Notes: a model not told the origin generated them from the letters alone. Positions 3,646 through 29,150 are shown, counted from the first letter of the stretch. The stretch: 64,000 bases of DNA from an uncultured Candidatus Saccharibacteria bacterium (GCA_964608605.1 CAZSOS010000002.1:36601-100600), one strand, 5' to 3'. Program-made: numbers and translations.

Positions 3646-4797
3646 TTATTTTAAGTAGCGTTTTTTCTTGAGTTTCTCCGGCAAGTAGCCCTTTTCATGG
3701 GCAAAGCCGGCCTCCCATTTTTGGCCTTGGCCGTAGCCGAGGTCTTTCATTAGTTTGGTGGGGGCGTTCCGAAGATGGGTAGGGATGGGCAGATTGCCGT
3801 ACTGCTTGATGTCGGCTTGCGCGGCGCGGAGCGCATCGTAGGAACGGCGGTCCTTTTTAGCCTGGGCTAGGTAGGCGACACCATGGGCCAAGTTGATGGC
3901 GCATTCTGGATAACCAATGACCTCGCAGGCCCGAAAGACCTCGTTAGCCACTACCAGGGCGGTGGGCTGGGCCAGACCGATGTCTTCGGAGGCAAAGACG
4001 ACCATACGCCGCGCGATGAATATCGGGTCTTCACCAGCCTCGATCATCCGGGCCAGGTAGTAGATGGCGGCGTCGGCATCAGAAGCCCGCATACTTTTTA
4101 TAAACGCCGAGATGGTGTTGTAGTGCTCCTCGCCCTTCTTGTCGTACCGGAGATGCGTGGACTGAAGCGTGGTTTCAAGCGTCTCGACAGTGATTTTCCC
4201 GTGCAGTTCTTGCGTTTGATCCATCAGGGTCAGCATTTGGCGCGCGTCGCCATTGGCCATCCGCACCAACCAATCCTGGGCCGCCTTCGGTACCTTTAAT
4301 TTCGTCCGCTTCACGATCAGGCGCATATCGTCTTCGGACAGTTCGTTGAGCACGAAGACGCGCGAGCGCGACAAGAGGGCGGAGATAACTTCAAAGCTTG
4401 GGTTTTCGGTGGTAGCACCGATGAGCGTCAGTTCACCCGACTCTACGTACGGCAAGAGAAAATCCTGCTGGGCTTTATTGAAACGATGGATCTCATCCAG
4501 AAACAACACTTTCCGCCGCAAGCTCGGGGTAGCGATGATCTTTCTGATATCTTCCTTGCCAGCCGATACGGCCGAGAGTTCGAACATCTCGGCATCAAGG
4601 GCGCCCGCATAGATCCGCGCTAAGGTGGTCTTCCCTACTCCCGGCGGTCCCCAGAGCACGAAGGAGAAAAGGTGCTTTTTTTCGATGGCTTCGCGGATGG
4701 GCTTCCCCGGGCTCACCAAATGCTCCTGGCCGATAAATTCGTCCAGATTGCGCGGGCGGATACGGGCGGCTAGGGGTTGCATATTAGGACTCATCAT
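3646..4797 (-). CDS. rarA: replication-associated recombination protein A (AAA+ ATPase MgsA/RarA)
   Basis: LWGPPGVGKTTLARIYA Walker A, followed by a RarA-like C-terminal region. Confidence 0.8.
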   Translation of the reverse strand: MMSPNMQPLAARIRPRNLDEFIGQEHLVSPGKPIREAIEKKHLFSFVLWGPPGVGKTTLARIYAGALDAEMFELSAVSAGKEDIRKIIATPSLRRKVLFLDEIHRFNKAQQDFLLPYVESGELTLIGATTENPSFEVISALLSRSRVFVLNELSEDDMRLIVKRTKLKVPKAAQDWLVRMANGDARQMLTLMDQTQELHGKITVETLETTLQSTHLRYDKKGEEHYNTISAFIKSMRASDADAAIYYLARMIEAGEDPIFIARRMVVFASEDIGLAQPTALVVANEVFRACEVIGYPECAINLAHGVAYLAQAKKDRRSYDALRAAQADIKQYGNLPIPTHLRNAPTKLMKDLGYGQGQKWEAGFAHEKGYLPEKLKKKRYLK

Positions 4798-6072: not shown

Positions 6073-6101
6073 TTGAAAAAGCCCGAGTTTTCAGGCATAA
6101 T
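6073..6101 (+). promoter_or_regulatory. candidate sigma70-type promoter for tRNA-Leu (TTGAAA, 17-nt spacer, CATAAT)
   Basis: TTGAAA at 6073-6078 and CATAAT at 6096-6101 with a 17-nt spacer, 8 nt upstream of the tRNA 5' end. Confidence 0.5.
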
Positions 6102-6109
6102 CAGGCGAC

Positions 6110-6196
6110 GCCGAAGTGGTGAAATTGGTATACACGCTACGTTCAGGTCGTAGTGGGGGCAACCCCGTGCTGGTTCAAGTCCAGTCTTCGGCACCA
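6110..6196 (+). tRNA. tRNA-Leu (anticodon CAG), long variable arm, CCA encoded
   Basis: Acceptor GCCGAAG/CTTCGGC, anticodon arm GCTAC-GTTCAGGT-CGTAG reading CAG, variable arm TGGGGGCAACCCCGTG, T-loop GGTTCAAGTCC, then CCA. Confidence 0.8.
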
Positions 6197-6204
6197 AAGA
6201 GAAA

Positions 6205-6231
6205 AACAGCCCTTGCGGGCTGTTTTTCGAT
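6205..6231. terminator. bidirectional intrinsic terminator hairpin (AAAACAGCCC-TTGC-GGGCTGTTTTT)
   Basis: A GC stem flanked by an A-run and a T-run, sitting between the tRNA-Leu end and the convergent gene's stop. Confidence 0.6.
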
Positions 6232-6312
6232 ACTGGTGCGAGGCGGGGCGGTGTATTTCGCTTCCTTTAACCTATCTTCTGTAGGCAGCTTTTTGCGTGT
6301 CTCTCTTCAGTT

Positions 6313-7008
6313 CTATTGCCGGCCGAACAGCATAGTGCCGTCGTCTTCAAGCTCCAGGACCAGCGCCCCGGAACCGGCGAAGAAGAAGCTCTTCACCCCT
6401 TCCAAGGCCGAGGTGAACTCGTGTTCTTGCGAACCTTCGCAATACATCATGGTCGAGGCTAGCGGACCAAAGGCCAACGCGTGATCGTTGACCTCGTAGC
6501 CGCCGAAGAAGCCGTTGCAGTCGGTCGTGCCGTTCACCCGACTCTCATCCGCGTCGAAGGTGATGGTGAAGGCGTCGGTCCGGCGCGGCTCGGTCACGAC
6601 CTCACCGATAGTGGTGGCTTGCCAAACCCAAGTGCCGGCCAACTTCAGGGCGTCGGTCAGGCCGCCGACGTTGCCGGAGAATATCTGCCGGCCATCTTTA
6701 GAAATGGTGACCGCCTCCCCCCGATTCCACAGCTCCAGACCCAGATCATCGTTGACGTAACGGGCTCCGGAAGCGGCGATGGCCAGGTCGAAGGCCAGGC
6801 CATCGTAGCCCAAGCCGTTCAAGACCGCGTGATCATCGCCTTTAAATTCCACCCTCACCGCCTCCCCCGTCTCCGGGCTGGTAAAGGTTATAGCTTCTTC
6901 CGCCATATTGGATCCCCAGGTTCCAGGTCCTTTCAGATAAAGGGCCAAGGATATCAGGGCGACCACTATGACCGCCACCAACAAGATCCATGATAGTTTT
7001 TTATCCAT
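6313..7008 (-). CDS. membrane-anchored MliC-like plus META/HslJ-domain protein
   Basis: N-terminal TM segment MDKKLSWILLVAVIVVALISLAL. The C-terminal part carries the META-domain pattern TTDCNGFFGGY...LAFGPLASTMMYC. The start was chosen at MDKK. Confidence 0.55.
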   Translation of the reverse strand: MDKKLSWILLVAVIVVALISLALYLKGPGTWGSNMAEEAITFTSPETGEAVRVEFKGDDHAVLNGLGYDGLAFDLAIAASGARYVNDDLGLELWNRGEAVTISKDGRQIFSGNVGGLTDALKLAGTWVWQATTIGEVVTEPRRTDAFTITFDADESRVNGTTDCNGFFGGYEVNDHALAFGPLASTMMYCEGSQEHEFTSALEGVKSFFFAGSGALVLELEDDGTMLFGRQ

Positions 7009-7924: not shown

Positions 7925-9385
<1,461 letters not shown>

Positions 9386-24309: not shown

Positions 24310-24430
24310 TTGAAGTTGGCGCCTACCTACTCTGCCCCAATTAAGGAGTACCATCGGCGATGGAGGGCTTAACTGCCGTGTTCGGAATGAGAACGGGTGT
24401 ACCCCCTCCGCTAAAGCACCAACTTCAAAA
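24310..24430 (-). rRNA. rrf: 5S ribosomal RNA
   Basis: The reverse complement contains CCGTTCTCATTCCGAACACGGCAGTTAAGC...GCCGATGGTACT...GGGCAGAGTAGGTAGGCGCC, with helix I pairing TTGAAGTTGGTGC/GCGCCAACTTCAA. Confidence 0.8.
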
Positions 24431-24504
24431 CTTCAATATTCGATTTTCAATCTGTACTTGACCAACTTGGATATTCTGAAGCGTAGCCATTTCCAAGAAA
24501 TGGC

Positions 24505-24580
24505 TGGCTGGGGCGGAAGGAGTCGAACCAACACCTGAGGGATAGTACCCTCCGTTCTAACCGTTAAACTAAGCCCCAGC
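24505..24580 (-). tRNA. tRNA-like gene with a non-canonical anticodon loop (apparently 6 nt) and U-U pairs in the T-stem; possible pseudo-tRNA
   Basis: Hand fold gives a good acceptor stem, a D-arm and the T-loop TTCGACT, but the anticodon stem GAGGG/CCCTC encloses only 6 nt (TACTAT). The isotype cannot be assigned by hand. Confidence 0.35.
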
Positions 24581-24602
24581 AAAAGAACTTGAAACAAATT
24601 AT

Positions 24603-24680
24603 TGGTCGGAGCAACGGGATTTGAACCCGTGACCCCTGGCTACCCGAGCCTAGTGCGCTACCAGGCTGCGCTACACTCCG
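24603..24680 (-). tRNA. tRNA-Pro-like (D-arm identical to tRNA-Pro, loop CTCGGGT reading CGG), anticodon stem irregular
   Basis: Acceptor CGGAGTG/TGCTCCG plus A and CCA, D-arm GCGC-AGCCTGGTA-GCGC, T-arm ACGGG-TTCAAAT-CCCGT. The anticodon region CTAGG-CTCGGGT-AGCCA does not pair canonically. Confidence 0.5.
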
Positions 24681-24996
24681 ACCTAGAGTAGGTGATATTT
24701 TTATCTTCCTACTCAAAACCAGTTCCCCGCTGGTTTATTGTTCGCAGTCTAATTAAGACCGCTTCAGAATATCCAAGCTTGTCCCGTACCAAGACGAATG
24801 TCTTTGGTACGGGATATTTCGCACATCTTCTTACCAGGTTCACACTTCACCCAAAATCGTACAGCGATATCCAGCATTCCTTGCAGGAAATACGTCCGAT
24901 TAGTACTTCTCGGCTCAACGTATTACTACGCTTACACCTAAAGCCTATCAACCTAATCATCTCTTAGGGGACTTCATGATACCTAATCTCAGAGTT

Positions 24997-25029
<33 letters not shown>

Positions 25030-25171
25030 ATTCCCGACATAGCTACTGGGCAGTGCCGCTGGCGCGACAGCCCACAGACCAGAGGTCAGTTCATCCCGGT
25101 CCTCTCGTACTAGGGACAAATCTCTTCAAGTATCGACGCCTGCAGTAGATAGGAGACCAACCTGTCTCACG

Positions 25172-25530
25172 CAATAGTAGCTGATTAGCTTTTAGCACTT
25201 AGCTATTAGCCATTCAACGCCATCATTACTGACGGGATCGGACTGTAACTTAGCCGGTTCTCGGCTTCCGATATTCAGTCTCTACAAGTGCACGAGTAAA
25301 CTTTTTTGCCAGTTTTACTCTGCTTCTCTCGGTATTGCCCGCAACATTACTTGTTAGGGTTTTACCGATTTTAATCGGATCATATCACTGATATTCCTAT
25401 CAGTGACCGCCGTGTAGGTTGGTTCTTTTCTTTGTTCATAAACGAAAAGTAAAAACAATTCTTCGAAGGGGTTTAGACTGCTGAATTTCCCTTAGCCAAG
25501 AGCTAAGTGCTAATAACTAAGAGCTATTCA
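25172..25530 (-). mobile_element. 359-nt ORF-less insertion in 23S between GGGTTTAGACCGT and CGTGAGACAGG (E. coli ~2593, the I-CreI/I-CeuI homing site); group I intron candidate with TTAGC-repeat inverted ends
   Basis: Exon sequence is continuous across the insertion. The insertion ends are TTAGC-rich inverted repeats at 25178-25210 and 25497-25527. Confidence 0.55.
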
Positions 25531-26187
25531 ACGGTCTAAACCCAGCTCGCGTATCTTTTTAATTGGCGAACAGCCAAACCCTTGGGACCTGCTCCAGCCC
25601 CAGGATAAGATGAGCCGACATCGAGGTGCCGAACCGTGCCGTCGCTTTGGACGCTTGGGCACGACTAGCCTGTTATCCCCAGGGTAACTTTTATCGGGTA
25701 ATCTCCGGCGGCATCTAACGCCAACCATCGGTTCACTATGCTCCGCTTTCGCGTCTGTTCGGCATCTACGCCTTACAGTCAAGCCAACTTTTGCCATTGC
25801 ACTATCGGCACGGTTTCCATTCGCGCCTAGTTGACCTTGAGACCCCTCCGTTACATTTTGGGAGGGTAGCGCCCCACTAAAACTGCCTGCCACTCACTGT
25901 CCCCGCCGCGTTTGACGCGACGGGTTAGAAACTGCCCAATTTAAGATAGGTATTTCACTGACGACTCCACGGTACCCGAAAGCCCGCTTCAAAGTCTCCC
26001 TACTATGCTACGCATAAATCAAACAGCCCCAATAAGAAGCTACAGTAAAGCTCCTGGGGTCTCTTCGTCTAACTGCAGGTAGGCTGCATCTTCACAGCCA
26101 TTGTATTTTCACCGAGCAGGTCCTTGAGACAGTTTCCCAGTCGTTACGCCATTCGTGCACGTCGGAACTTACCCGACAAGGAATTGC

Positions 26188-26420
26188 GCTCTATAATTCC
26201 TTCTTTAATGTAGATACCCGCGTATCTACGTACACAATAGGACTCTATCTTCACCCTCTTATATACTAGTCAGACTAGTATAAAGGTGGGGTGTGCAACA
26301 TTTGGTCTCTTGTTGGTTGCAATTGGAAATACTAATGATTACTCACTAGTAAGGTAACTATGGCTCGGGCTGTTTAACTCTACAATCGTTCTAATCCGTA
26401 GAGCACACTTCCGAAGAAAC
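26188..26420 (-). mobile_element. ~233-nt ORF-less insertion in 23S between GGTAGAGCGC and (G)CAATTCCTTGTCGGG (E. coli ~1917 intron site); carries an internal REP-like palindrome
   Basis: Flanking exon sequence aligns to AACTATAACGGTCCTAAGGTAGCG|AAATTCCTTGTCGGG. Palindrome TATACTAGTCAGACTAGTATA lies at 26262-26282. A 7-nt direct repeat AGAGCGC sits at the junctions. Confidence 0.5.
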
Positions 26421-26647
26421 GCGCTCTACCTTAGAACGATTATAGTTATCGCTGACATTGACGGGGGCTTACACAGTCCAGCACCCAGCACCACTCTCAC
26501 AAACTTTGTTTGTGAAGATGGTGCTGGGCACCGCCCGTGCTTAACCTTCCCGCATTGGTCAGGCGTCACCCTCTATACATGGACTTACGTCTTCGCAGAG
26601 AGCTGTGTTTTTGTTAAACAGTCGCCAGGAAATCTTTCGCTGCGGCC

Positions 26648-26836
26648 GAGCGCATCACGCTACGCGCGATGACTAAATTCAAAATTGAAAAGTCAAAATG
26701 CAAAATTACAATGCAAAGTTCAAAATTTCGCTACGAACTCTATGAGTACGTGACGTAATTTTTACTTTTTATTTGTACTTTTGATTTTTGAGATTTTCCT
26801 TTTCAATTTAGCATCACATGCAATGTGATGCGCTCG
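26648..26836 (-). repeat. AT-rich IVS-like expansion in the 23S helix-63 region (copy A of a duplicated AT-rich element)
   Basis: Inserted between the complementary arms GAGCGCATCAC and GTGATGCGCTC. Contains a 47-nt segment (26689-26735) identical to 27405-27451. Confidence 0.6.
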
Positions 26837-27374
26837 GCAGGCCTTATCCCGAAGTTACGGCCGCTTTTTTGCCGAGTTCCTTAAGGACCCCTCACTCGTT
26901 CGCCTTGGTCTTCTCGACCCTACCACCTGTGTCGGTTTGCGGTACGGAACCACTATGCTTAACCCAAACGAAGTTTTTCTCGGAAGCGTGCTCCTTACAT
27001 TTCCTTGGCCGTAGCCGCAGATTCAGACTCTACTCGGATGATATCGCGCGGATTTGCCTACGCGACGTCCTCATAGCTCCAGCACCAATCCAATAAGATG
27101 CTGTAAGTACAACGCTCCGTCCCTCCATAGGAACATAGCAGTGTGCAGGAATATTAACCTGCTCTCCATCGCCTCCGGCGTTCGCCATCGGCTTAGGACC
27201 GACTAACCCTTCGCTGATCACCATCGCGAAGGAAACCTCGGTATTTCGGCGGACGGGGTTCTCACCCGTCTTGCGGTTACTTGTGCCGGCATTCTCACTT
27301 CGCATCGCTCCAGGTAGGGTCTCCCCCACCATTCATCGCAGATACGAACGCTCTCCTACCACTCAACGCACCTC

Positions 27375-27525
27375 ACAAAAGTTCGTTGCTAAAATAAAAA
27401 TGTAAAAGTCAAAATGCAAAATTACAATGCAAAGTTCAAAATTTCGCTACGTGCTATCCTGCGCGTTGCGTGATTTTGATTTTTGAGATTTCAATTTTCA
27501 ATTTAGCATCTCACCTCTGTGAGAT
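27375..27525 (-). repeat. AT-rich IVS-like expansion in 23S helix 45 (copy B)
   Basis: Inserted in the helix-45 stem CAGCGCATCTCAC/GTGAGGTGCGTTG, the site of the classical enterobacterial and Coxiella IVS. Shares the 47-nt repeat and the GATTTTTGAGATTT motif with copy A. Confidence 0.6.
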
Positions 27526-27615
27526 GCGCTGAATCCGCAGTTTCGGTAATATGCTTGAGCCCCGATCATCTTCGGCGCAAGGACTCTCGACCAGTGAGCT
27601 GTTACGCTTTCTTTA

Positions 27616-27650
<35 letters not shown>

Positions 27651-28210
27651 TAGAGAATCCTCACCTCCTCCAGATGCACTGAGCATATATTTAGGGACCT
27701 TAACTGGCGATCTGGGCTGTTCCCCTTTTGACCAATGGAGCTTCTCCCCCATAGTCTAACTGCCGAGCTATAATCTCTGGTATTCGGAGTTTGATAGGAA
27801 CAACGAGCTTTCGCCCTGTTTGTTCCTTCCAGTGCTCTACCCCCAGAGGGACCACTCGACGCCAACCCAAAAGCTGTTTCGGAGAGAACCAGCTATTACG
27901 GAAATCGATTAGCTTTTCACTCCTTACCACAAGTCATCCGATGGTTTTGTACGGCCAACCGGTTCGGGCCTCCACGAGGTTTTACCCTCGCTTCACCCTG
28001 CTCATGGCAAGCTCTTCCCGCTTCGGGTCGTACCCCAACTCCATATTCGCGCTATTCACGCTCGCTTTCACTGCGCCTCCGCGGGTTTTCCGCTTAGACA
28101 AGGAATTAAGGTACACTCGCCGGCTCATTCTTCAATAGGCACGCCGCAACCCCGAAAGGCCGCGACTCCTTGTAAGTGTATGGTTTCAGATCTATTTCAC
28201 TCCCCTCTCC

Positions 28211-28256
<46 letters not shown>

Positions 28257-28554
28257 TTAAAAGATATTTAGCCTTACCAGTTAGTGCTGGCAGATTCATC
28301 CGAGCTATTCATGTCTCGAACTACTCAGGAACAAGATCAACGGAGTCATATACATTTCAAATACGGGACTATTACCCACTGGGGTCGAGCTTCCCAACTC
28401 GTTCTTCTATATATATGTTTTGTAACTCCGCGCAACTAAATGCGGACCTTGCCCTACAACCCCGTAAATATTGCTATCAACGGTTTGGGCTATTCCCGTT
28501 TCGCTCGCCGCTACTAAGGGAATCGCGAGAACCTTCTTCCTGGTTTCAATGGCC

Positions 28555-28878
28555 CCAGCACCACTTTTTGGTTTCAATGGATTTGAGACGACTCACATCT
28601 TTTCAATAATTCTTGTTTGCCGCGACCATGTTGTTTAAGTCGCTGCTCACGCTTGTCCGCATCGTCTTTAGAACGGTATGCTTCTGCGTATATCAAGATC
28701 CATTTCCCTGATGTTCTGTGCGTAGACTTATTGCGTGAGCTATTATGCTCGCTAAGTCGTCGCCTCAAATCATTGGTTCTTCCAATGTAGATATCTCTAG
28801 TATCACTGTGTTGTATCACATAGACACTGTACATAATCCACATTGTATCAAAACCAAAAAGTGGTGCTGGGTAGTTTT
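28555..28878 (-). mobile_element. IVS-like element in 23S domain I (E. coli ~210) bounded by 21-bp perfect inverted repeats CCCAGCACCACTTTTTGGTTT; encodes a GIY-YIG protein
   Basis: Inverted repeats at 28555-28575 and 28858-28878. The flanking rRNA aligns to GAAAAGAAA...GATTCCC..AGTAGCGGCGAGCGAA. Confidence 0.65.
28574..28843 (-). CDS. GIY-YIG nuclease superfamily protein (89 aa) encoded inside the 23S rRNA gene
   Basis: YSVYVIQHSDTRDIYIGRTNDLRRRLSEHN carries the GIY...YIG motifs with conserved Arg and Glu. Confidence 0.6.
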   Translation of the reverse strand: MWIMYSVYVIQHSDTRDIYIGRTNDLRRRLSEHNSSRNKSTHRTSGKWILIYAEAYRSKDDADKREQRLKQHGRGKQELLKRCESSQIH

Positions 28879-29150
28879 AACCAGAAAGAAAGTTCCGTAT
28901 ATTGCTTTCTTTTCCTCTCGGTACTGAGATGTTTCACTTCCCGAGGTGTGCTCTCGCATAACGCGAGTTTCCGACGTAATCGGAAGGGTTTCCCCATTCG
29001 GAGATCTCCGGATCGAAGGTTGATTGTCACCTCCCCGAAGCTTATCGCAGACATTCTACGTCCTTCATCGCTCTTTTAAGCCAAGGCATCCACCATACAC
29101 CCTTACATTCCTGCAAGGAATGCTGTACACCGCTGTACGATTCTGATCAT

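Follow-up and report, generated by a model that had tools for sequence, protein, structure and literature searches.

A GIY-YIG gene within an inverted-repeat hairpin of a 23S rRNA gene, probably one copy of a selfish cassette family of Patescibacteria

Results

The insertion and its site

The element described here is a cassette of 318 nt, made of a small open reading frame (ORF) of the GIY-YIG type lying between the arms of a perfect inverted repeat, and found inside the 23S rRNA gene of an uncultured bacterium. It was analysed in a stretch of 64,000 nt (GCA_964608605.1 CAZSOS010000002.1:36601-100600), hereafter the window, from whose first letter positions are counted. The features of the locus, in the order of the rRNA, are the following.

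24879-29116, minus strand: host 23S rRNA gene (Rfam RF02541, 2293 bits, full length; 4,238 nt against a model of 2,925 positions)
28879-28896, minus strand: 5' arm of a host expansion stem, GGAACUUUCUUUCUGGUU, with the cassette at its tip (RNA fold)
28851-28871, minus strand: 5' (RNA-sense) arm of the repeat, CCCAGCACCACUUUUUGGUUU, which fits the family consensus YCCAGCNCCANTTTT (sequence search)
28842-28850, minus strand: extended -10-like box TGATACAAT, 7 nt upstream of the ATG, a putative promoter (TAnnnT box shared by most cassettes)
28574-28834, minus strand: GIY-YIG ORF, 86 amino acids plus stop (PF01541, family alignment, substitution rates, AlphaFold model)
28554-28574, minus strand: 3' (RNA-sense) arm of the repeat, AAACCAAAAAGUGGUGCUGGG (sequence search)
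28529-28545, minus strand: 3' arm of the host expansion stem, AACCAGGAAGAAGGUUC (RNA fold)

The 23S gene exceeds its model by about 1,300 nt, a surplus spread over five or six insertion sites when the gene is mapped by blastn onto the E. coli 23S (reference L009:978-3881). The insertion that holds the cassette measures 375 nt in cmscan and stands in for the 2 nt that separate positions 228 and 231 of the model; it falls in a hairpin of two base pairs (model 224-231), and blastn places it at E. coli 227/229, in domain I. The E. coli sequence at this site reads U224-C225/AACC/G230-A231, and the cassette occupies the tetraloop of this small hairpin, which is probably helix 12 of domain I.

The 21-bp inverted repeat CCCAGCACCACTTTTTGGTTT (28554-28574 and 28851-28871) has arms that are 100% complementary and 276 nt apart, and 100 dinucleotide-preserving shuffles of the window gave no match to it even when three mismatches were allowed. 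The original prediction, made from the sequence alone, had rightly reported this repeat as perfect, at 28555-28575 and 28858-28878, coordinates that are off by 1 nt and 7 nt. It had also proposed that the arms form a helix, like that of an intervening sequence (IVS), that extends a domain-I hairpin, and both the mapped site and the folding agree with this: the RNA of 28500-28920 (minus strand) folds at -157.5 kcal/mol (z = -12.0), with, from the outside in, a host stem of 17-18 bp, an internal loop and a repeat helix of 21 bp or longer. The same outer expansion stem is found at L001, L005 and L063, with differing tips.

Only about 57 nt of the cassette are non-coding. The ORF lies on the same strand as the 23S rRNA (minus), as had been stated. 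Read mechanically from an upstream ATG at 28843, it spans 28574-28843 (minus strand) and encodes the 89 amino acids first described, including IYIGRTNDLRRRLSEHN; in 25 of 25 homologues, however, the start is the second ATG (28834), so that the real product probably has 86 residues. The last base of the stop codon is shared with the 3' arm of the repeat. No Intron_gpI or group II match was found in 28527-28902 at the Rfam gathering cut-off (the scan by E-value covered only 24800-27700), and an intron identity for the cassette was rejected on this gathering-level result.

The encoded protein

The ORF matches the Pfam GIY-YIG domain PF01541 with E=9.9e-19 (67.9 bits, cut-off 22.6), and in an alignment of 26 sequences residues Y8, Y19, G21, R29, H33, N34 and E54 are invariant. 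The AlphaFold (AF2) model has a predicted local distance difference test score (pLDDT) of 80 and elements in the order E-E-H-E-H-H. Its best structural matches are the UPF0213 protein BH0048 (1zg2) and Slx1, with template modelling (TM) scores of 0.6-0.66 and root-mean-square deviations of 1.9-3.3 A; the match to 1zg2 reaches E=1e-10, and in the structure search I-TevI and UvrC score 0.6 or worse (Foldseek E=0.6 for I-TevI). The sequence profile ranks the relatives in the same order as the structure search, and the group I intron endonuclease model TIGR01453 gives 22.3 bits, below its cut-off of 56.05. The domain match, the catalytic positions and the alpha/beta fold place the protein in the GIY-YIG superfamily, as a predicted nuclease, and the modelled structure identifies it as a minimal catalytic domain of the structure-specific branch, devoid of a DNA-binding module. 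The UPF0213/YhbQ-like affinity proposed at the outset is thus borne out, as being of the YhbQ-Slx1 type, by profile and structure matches alike. The family PF05635 (23S_rRNA_IVP/S23p) was absent among the Pfam matches of the ORF even at E<=1.

The ratio of non-synonymous to synonymous divergence (dN/dS) is 0.14 when the window's gene is compared with copies located in helix 63 (see below), and 0.03-0.16 inside the clade of copies sharing the window's site, with dS values of 0.7-1.4 or saturated. Such ratios indicate an ORF that is under purifying selection, and hence functional. A profile search of 1.84 billion representatives gave 1,934 sequences at E<=1e-10 and only 9 at E<=1e-30. More distant homologues (38-46% identity; L056, L058-L060, L062) from the Candidate Phyla Radiation (CPR, or Patescibacteria) have no flanking repeat, which suggests that the nuclease was recruited from a cellular gene.

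Relatives at many sites

Relatives were collected by a protein search, by a scan of one genome per species and by an exact search for the 20-mer of the window's stem, for a total of more than 80 related loci. The protein search gave 25 homologues of 85-86 amino acids, 55-80% identical to the window's and every one metagenomic; the species scan gave 53 loci, almost all in metagenome-assembled genomes (MAGs) of CPR bacteria; the exact search gave 37 metagenome stretches. No relative was found in the viral contigs of IMG/VR, and a phage origin was rejected on that account.

Flanks were mapped onto the E. coli 23S and the window's 16S. The proteins nearest to the window's are divided over two places in the 23S. 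The site of the window, E. coli 227/232 (hereafter site 228), is also occupied by a cassette in L063, L064, L065, L070 and L098, and by a truncated copy in L094. Helix 63 (E. coli 1702-1768) is occupied in L001, L005-8 and L066 and in 13 metagenome loci, with a stem identical to that of the site-228 group; the proteins of L001, L005 and L066 are 77-80% identical to the window's and are flanked by the identical 21-bp repeat. Further 23S copies lie at E. coli 270-422, 541-667 (helix 25 region) and 2397-2419. Three sites of the 16S are also occupied, and cassettes were found just outside rRNA genes, 24 nt ahead of a 23S and 41 nt past a 16S.

Host genes of the family are not restricted to rRNA, and comprise the 23S, the 16S, RNase P RNA (three helices) and two protein genes. 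Eight loci without nearby rRNA have in their flanks GAGGAAAGUCCGGAC and CCUAGAUAAAUGA, which we took to be conserved RNase P RNA sequence. Matches to RF00010 (RNase P class A), spanning or abutting the cassettes, were obtained at those flanks with E=1e-25, 4e-12 and 1e-8; their scores (88, 48 and 38 bits) stay below the Rfam gathering score of 100 because of the cassette insertions. By Rfam and flank mapping, the RNase P RNA copies distribute as follows.

Helix P3, host strand: L010, L011, L054
Helices P16/17, host strand: L014, L020, L049, L050
Helices P19 and P16/17, host strand: L052, with two cassettes in a single RNase P RNA gene

As for protein genes, a cassette at L057:2280-2593 splits an rfbB-like gene at its Rossmann motif (GGAGF|IGS), on the coding strand; in silico removal, with an ambiguity of 2 nt at the boundary, restores a frame of 370 codons, and the downstream 325 codons are still open. 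The other, L045:3971-4270, splits an IS91-like transposase gene in its zinc finger, again on the coding strand. Neither of these two insertions has a target duplication. The surroundings of two more cassettes (L018:3973-4275 and L036:3976-4272) contain no rRNA, RNase P RNA, other Rfam family or spanning ORF, with a run of N in L036; they may be structured RNAs that are not yet recognised. The flanks of L018 fold as a hairpin beside a tRNA gene.

Orientation is constant: all of the approximately 65 cassettes mapped to RNA genes, and both copies in protein genes, lie on the strand of the host gene. Seventeen contexts were counted among the 43 intact copies, and for 22 of the 43 the copy with the most similar protein is found at another site. 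In a neighbour-joining tree (86 residues, drawn without support values), the site-228 copies group in a single clade, whose sister clade comes from helix 63, and the deeper branches around it are helix-63 lineages as well. This nesting suggests that the lineage moved once, from helix 63 to site 228. Judged from the comparison of these copies, the cassette is mobile at the DNA level.

Filled, empty and degenerate sites

A comparison of sister genomes had been proposed with the original prediction, and three states are found at site 228 in related genomes: a plain hairpin of 100 nt in L005, an ORF-less element of 326 nt in L001, and the nuclease cassette in the window clade. Helix 63 is empty in L063 and L046, filled in L001 and L005, and holds an unrelated hairpin of 150 nt in the window. 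The coexistence of filled, plain and ORF-less states at one site shows that the element is not a fixed part of the rRNA. The L001 element (3921-4246) has, between arms akin to the cassette stem (CCAACACCATTTTTGATTTT), a GC-rich and highly structured cargo in which no ORF, Rfam match or GIY-YIG remnant was found.

Short hairpins without ORF, of 32-125 nt and with the same stems, are present at other variable helices of the same genes. Three were counted in L012, two in the RNase P RNA of L020 and five in L038, of which two are near-identical at different sites of one 23S gene; in six metagenome loci, such hairpins have the window's exact 20-mer. One is found in the window itself.

26484-26528, minus strand: mini-hairpin of 45 nt, ORF-less, between E. 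coli 1852 and 1889 of the 23S

The cassette stem has the same outer 10 bp as this hairpin (CCCAGCACCA/UGGUGCUGGG, also given as CCCAGCACCA/TGGTGCTGGG), which is probably a non-autonomous relative of the cassette. A mini-hairpin of L038 occupies the same 23S site. L038 also has, directly past the 3' end of the 23S, an element of 253 nt (6076-6328) bounded by CCAGATCCGGTTTT/AAAACCGGATCTGG.

The ORF is broken in 8 of 51 cases. L041 and L043 have decayed second copies in which the 3' end of the ORF is still visible, and two cassettes occur in one gene in L025, L031 and L052. The idea of one nuclease gene per genome was rejected, since L025, L031, L043 and L052 each have two cassettes in one gene. 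Read together, these copies form a series of gain, duplication and decay.

A stem conserved as RNA

Nearly every cassette is bounded by an inverted repeat of 16-26 bp with the consensus YCCAGCNCCANTTTT(T)GG, regardless of the host gene. In an alignment of 44 stems, 97.6% of the cells are paired, and in 18 of the 20 pairs both partners have changed (201 cells). None of 500 shuffles matched this covariation, and sliding the partner by 1-3 columns lowered the pairing to 37-54%. Mismatches between the arms, read on the strand of the ORF and host, are 19 G.U against 3 A.C (p=0.0009, an optimistic value, as are all p-values for the stem, given that the loci are phylogenetically related); with flanking positions included, the counts are 83 against 19. 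The direction of this bias, toward G.U on the sense strand, points to selection on the helix in the sense RNA and not only on the DNA ends. Covariation and mismatch bias across the family show the arms to be paired, as an RNA helix, in the transcript of the host gene.

A correlation between protein clade and stem subtype was considered as evidence of recognition, and dropped, because physical linkage alone explains it.

Start codon and promoter-like box

Of 46 cassettes, 33 have a TAnnnT hexamer upstream of the ATG at a distance of 5-8 nt, most often 6; 1,000 shuffles gave 7.7 on average and never more than 16. The TGn extension is present in 16 of these 33, and in two loci an AAGGAG Shine-Dalgarno sequence replaces the box. 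Inside the site-228 clade the hexamer (TACAAT or TATAAT) is conserved, while the spacer of 6-7 nt varies freely. A conserved hexamer with a variable spacer is the pattern of a -10 element that places the transcription start at the ATG, which suggests that the nuclease is made from a separate, leaderless mRNA. A standard -35/-10 promoter was rejected, as a simple sigma-70 scan for these boxes finds none at the cassette (minus strand), and only the extended -10-type box fits. The nuclease had been thought to be expressed from the excised IVS fragment; in view of the conserved box, this is not the sole option.

In the full-length fold, the start-codon region AAUGUGGAUUAUG (28832-28843) pairs with the end of the ORF, AAAUCCAUUGA (28574-28585), both on the minus strand, a pairing that would block initiation within the pre-rRNA.

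The host and the other insertions of its 23S gene

The window's 16S shares 91-94% identity with the 16S of 'Candidatus Paceibacterota bacterium ABC1.92' (L029). This match, together with the unlinked 16S, the intron-rich 23S and the fact that nearly all genomes with homologues are CPR MAGs, assigns the host, on its sequence, to the Paceibacterota, that is, to the CPR/Patescibacteria. The 16S (7925-9384, minus strand) is separated from the 23S by about 15 kb with protein genes between, and two tRNA genes (24314-24680, minus strand) lie between the 23S and the 5S. An unlinked arrangement of 16S and 23S is typical of CPR (PMC8172020).

Apart from the cassette, the 23S gene has the following insertions, all on the minus strand and placed by blastn against E. 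coli.

Helix 45: about 150 nt
Helix 63: about 150 nt
E. coli 1852-1889: about 34 nt
E. coli 1931/1932: 236 nt
E. coli 2593/2594: 360 nt

The last two (about 26190-26426 and about 25171-25531, minus strand) lie exactly at classic intron sites and have no ORF. They give sub-threshold Intron_gpI matches (E=0.0025 at 1931/1932 and 2e-5 at 2593/2594), and are probably compact ORF-less group I introns. The insertions in helix 45 (about 27364-27531, minus strand) and helix 63 (about 26646-26837, minus strand) are paralogous ORF-less hairpins (blastn E=2e-25, with a block of 60 nt 100% identical). Their stem family, (C)AGCGCATCTCAC / CCGAGCGCATCAC, is unlike the cassette stem, and no nuclease accompanies them; they constitute a second family of mobile hairpins in this gene.

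Discussion

How the cassette may live and spread

We consider it likely that the window holds one copy of a selfish cassette family, specific to CPR/Patescibacteria, that resides in the apical loops of peripheral helices of stable RNAs. With its arms paired, the insert projects from the tip of hairpin 224-231 as a long perfect helix, leaving the rRNA core undisturbed. As a presumed substrate of RNase III, this helix would lead to the insert being cut out, as in classical IVSs, or else the insert would be tolerated as an expansion. The RNase III gene, rnc, is retained in CPR genomes (PMC12641178), and transcripts of CPR rRNA genes reportedly lose their insertions (PMC11270868, citing Brown 2015). 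The nuclease would be translated from the leaderless mRNA starting at the ATG, and possibly also from processed pre-rRNA. It would drive the spread of the cassette by cutting DNA at or near a hairpin, a cruciform or an 'empty' stem, after which repair would copy the cassette in. Old copies decay to ORF-less mini-hairpins in which the stem is kept.

A bolder proposal is that the stem and the GIY-YIG gene form an undescribed mobile system, with autonomous and non-autonomous members, for the tips of stable-RNA hairpins (23S, 16S and RNase P RNA), in which an Slx1-like nuclease, specific for the structure or for the stem, recognises its own helix and thereby drives both spread and removal. We regard this as a tentative possibility. 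Recognition could take place on a DNA hairpin of the non-template strand, in genes that are highly transcribed, or on RNA.

Several observations weigh against the selfish reading. Stem statistics are optimistic for the reason given above, and the sigma-70 scan detected no promoter at the cassette. Neither a target-site duplication nor a common target motif was seen across 13 distinct junctions. No strand-transfer activity is known for GIY-YIG enzymes, and a domain of 86 residues without DNA-binding module may lack specificity of its own. In the site-228 clade the ORF has stayed intact at a single site over dS > 1, a retention unusual among homing genes that are purely parasitic. Finally, conservation of the repeat exceeds that of the protein: loci with the exact 20-mer encode proteins whose identity to the window's is only 59-79%, and between the window and L001, 64% of the synonymous sites differ, yet both 21-nt arms are identical. 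Conservation of the stem sequence beyond what pairing explains hints at a sequence-specific partner.

In the main alternative, the nuclease is an enzyme of RNA processing and not of mobility: it would recognise the stem in pre-rRNA and pre-RNase P RNA, excise its own cassette as well as the mini-hairpins, and make the host dependent on it, in the manner of a maturase or of an addictive element. This alternative is rather unlikely in our view, even if it would account for a stem more conserved than the protein and selected at the RNA level, for an intact ORF that persists at a fixed site over a long period, and for mini-hairpins that share the stem subtype of the resident cassette (L012, L020, L038, L041 and the window). 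Against it, divergent cassettes with unlike stems occur in pairs in several genes, the window's elements in helices 45 and 63 have other stems and no nuclease, and the arrival of copies at new sites is left unexplained. Moreover, no GIY-YIG enzyme is known to be an endonuclease acting on RNA. For the removal of the hairpins, the RNase III kept in CPR genomes (PMC12641178) would suffice.

The original prediction spoke of a homing or selfish module. Selfish, mobile behaviour is what the distribution of copies indicates, and it is classical homing, at a given site, that fits poorly. A homing gene of the I-TevI or Seg type would cut the empty E. coli 228 site and be copied there through recombination of the flanking rDNA, which would indeed give homology for repair; the presence/absence polymorphism at site 228 is expected on such a scheme, as is the single clade formed by site-228 copies across hosts whose 23S are 76-91% identical (blastn segment). 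We nevertheless regard it as unlikely. The protein of 86 residues has no DNA-binding domain, it reaches 22 bits where TIGR01453 asks for 56, and I-TevI is a poor structural match. The family is spread over at least 17 contexts (three RNA genes, two protein genes) whose flanks have no motif in common, and a homing gene has no need of a conserved repeat of its own. The absence of target duplication and target motif, together with the Slx1-like fold, makes a cut directed by structure or by the stem, followed by copying repair, more plausible than sequence-specific homing.

A fixed, lineage-specific expansion segment of the rRNA, with an ORF that is open by chance or a dead relic, is very improbable: CPR 23S genes are rich in expansions and the host has a 17-bp extra stem at this very site, but the Pfam match (E=1e-18), the invariant catalytic residues and the relatives without insert at this site are against it, and the dN/dS values of about 0.1, with synonymous sites near saturation, together with the polymorphism effectively refute it. 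A self-splicing group I or II intron with a homing endonuclease has next to no chance of being correct, for although two group-I-like insertions exist at 1931 and 2593 of the same 23S gene and relatives have LAGLIDADG introns, the cassette has no gathering-level Rfam intron match (scan by E-value limited to 24800-27700), merely about 57 non-coding nt and a non-conserved loop as its site, and no GIY-YIG ORF is reported in intron-like insertions (Tsurumaki 2024, PMC11270868).

Returning to the selfish cassette family, its interest lies in that the origin and movement of bacterial rRNA IVSs have been unresolved since their discovery, the usual ORF, S23p, having no known function. The family makes the question testable: its nuclease can be recognised, its stem is conserved, its donor, empty and decayed states are clear, and its hosts are not rRNA genes alone. 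If the proposed stem- or structure-specific mobile system is real, it would provide a concrete mechanism for this origin and movement, and many short 'uncharacterised' insertions in CPR rRNA would be decayed copies of the cassette. There is also a consequence for annotation: cassettes depress RNase P RNA scores and, in CPR genomes, make predicted rRNA genes too long or split them, so that recognition of the stem motif YCCAGCNCCANTTTT would be of help. The window locus taken alone is mostly clarifying, and it is the properties of the family that carry more interest.

Comparison with known systems

Insertions are present in 82% of CPR 23S genes, and 30 GIY-YIG ORFs were recorded in CPR rRNA insertions, none of them intron-like, and described as 'sparse' and 'outside homing' (Tsurumaki 2024, PMC11270868); non-intron GIY-YIG insertions in CPR rRNA are also credited to Brown 2015, as cited in that survey. 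The window locus has the same host group, the same length class (at least 100 nt relative to E. coli) and a PF01541 ORF, and the ORFs of the survey are scattered over several non-conserved sites, as are those of the cassette family. The locus thus belongs to a class already catalogued in CPR, at a site that we did not find reported, and the GIY-YIG cargo, called unusual in the original prediction, is so only outside CPR. The survey gives counts and positions, unlike the family-level data presented here. In the searchable literature, outside which most subscription journals lie, we found no published report of GIY-YIG cassettes in RNase P RNA, nothing on this cassette family in work on GIY-YIG with RNase P RNA, inverted repeats or IVSs, and no mention of the shared stem sequence, the RNA covariation, the ORF-less derivatives, the RNase P RNA and protein-gene hosts, the promoter-like box or the Slx1/UPF0213 affinity.

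Classical 23S IVSs (Salmonella, Leptospira, Campylobacter, Coxiella) are excised by RNase III without re-ligation. The cassette resembles them in its location at the tip of a variable helix, its long end-to-end stem, its sporadic presence among relatives, the ORF in its loop (found only sometimes in IVSs) and the lack of a ribozyme. It differs by its cargo, GIY-YIG instead of the four-helix 23S_rRNA_IVP/S23p protein, by its site (E. coli 224-231, against helix 9, 25 or 45), and by a stem whose sequence is conserved across sites and genes; excision of the cassette would follow by analogy with IVSs.

Slx1/UPF0213 (YhbQ-like) proteins are the best matches of the cassette protein in both sequence and structure, and share with it the minimal catalytic domain. 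Slx1 is a structure-specific nuclease acting on branched DNA. The cassette protein has no RING or partner domain, unlike these relatives, and is encoded in a mobile hairpin within an RNA gene.

Another likeness is with transposons and their miniature inverted-repeat derivatives (MITEs), or with the REPIN-RAYT system: terminal inverted repeats, one coding version accompanied by numerous short hairpins that have the same ends and lack an ORF, and multiple sites per genome. In contrast to these, the cassette shows no target-site duplication, encodes a GIY-YIG protein and not a DDE, HUH or recombinase enzyme, and targets almost only the loops of stable-RNA genes, always on the transcribed strand.

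Lastly, archaeal rRNA introns are protein-dependent and devoid of ribozyme, contain an endonuclease gene, and exist as ORF-less mini-introns at many sites, all of which has its counterpart in the cassette family. The bulge-helix-bulge splicing endonuclease is not known from bacteria. The cassette helix is a plain perfect duplex, so that re-ligation is not expected, unlike in the archaeal introns.

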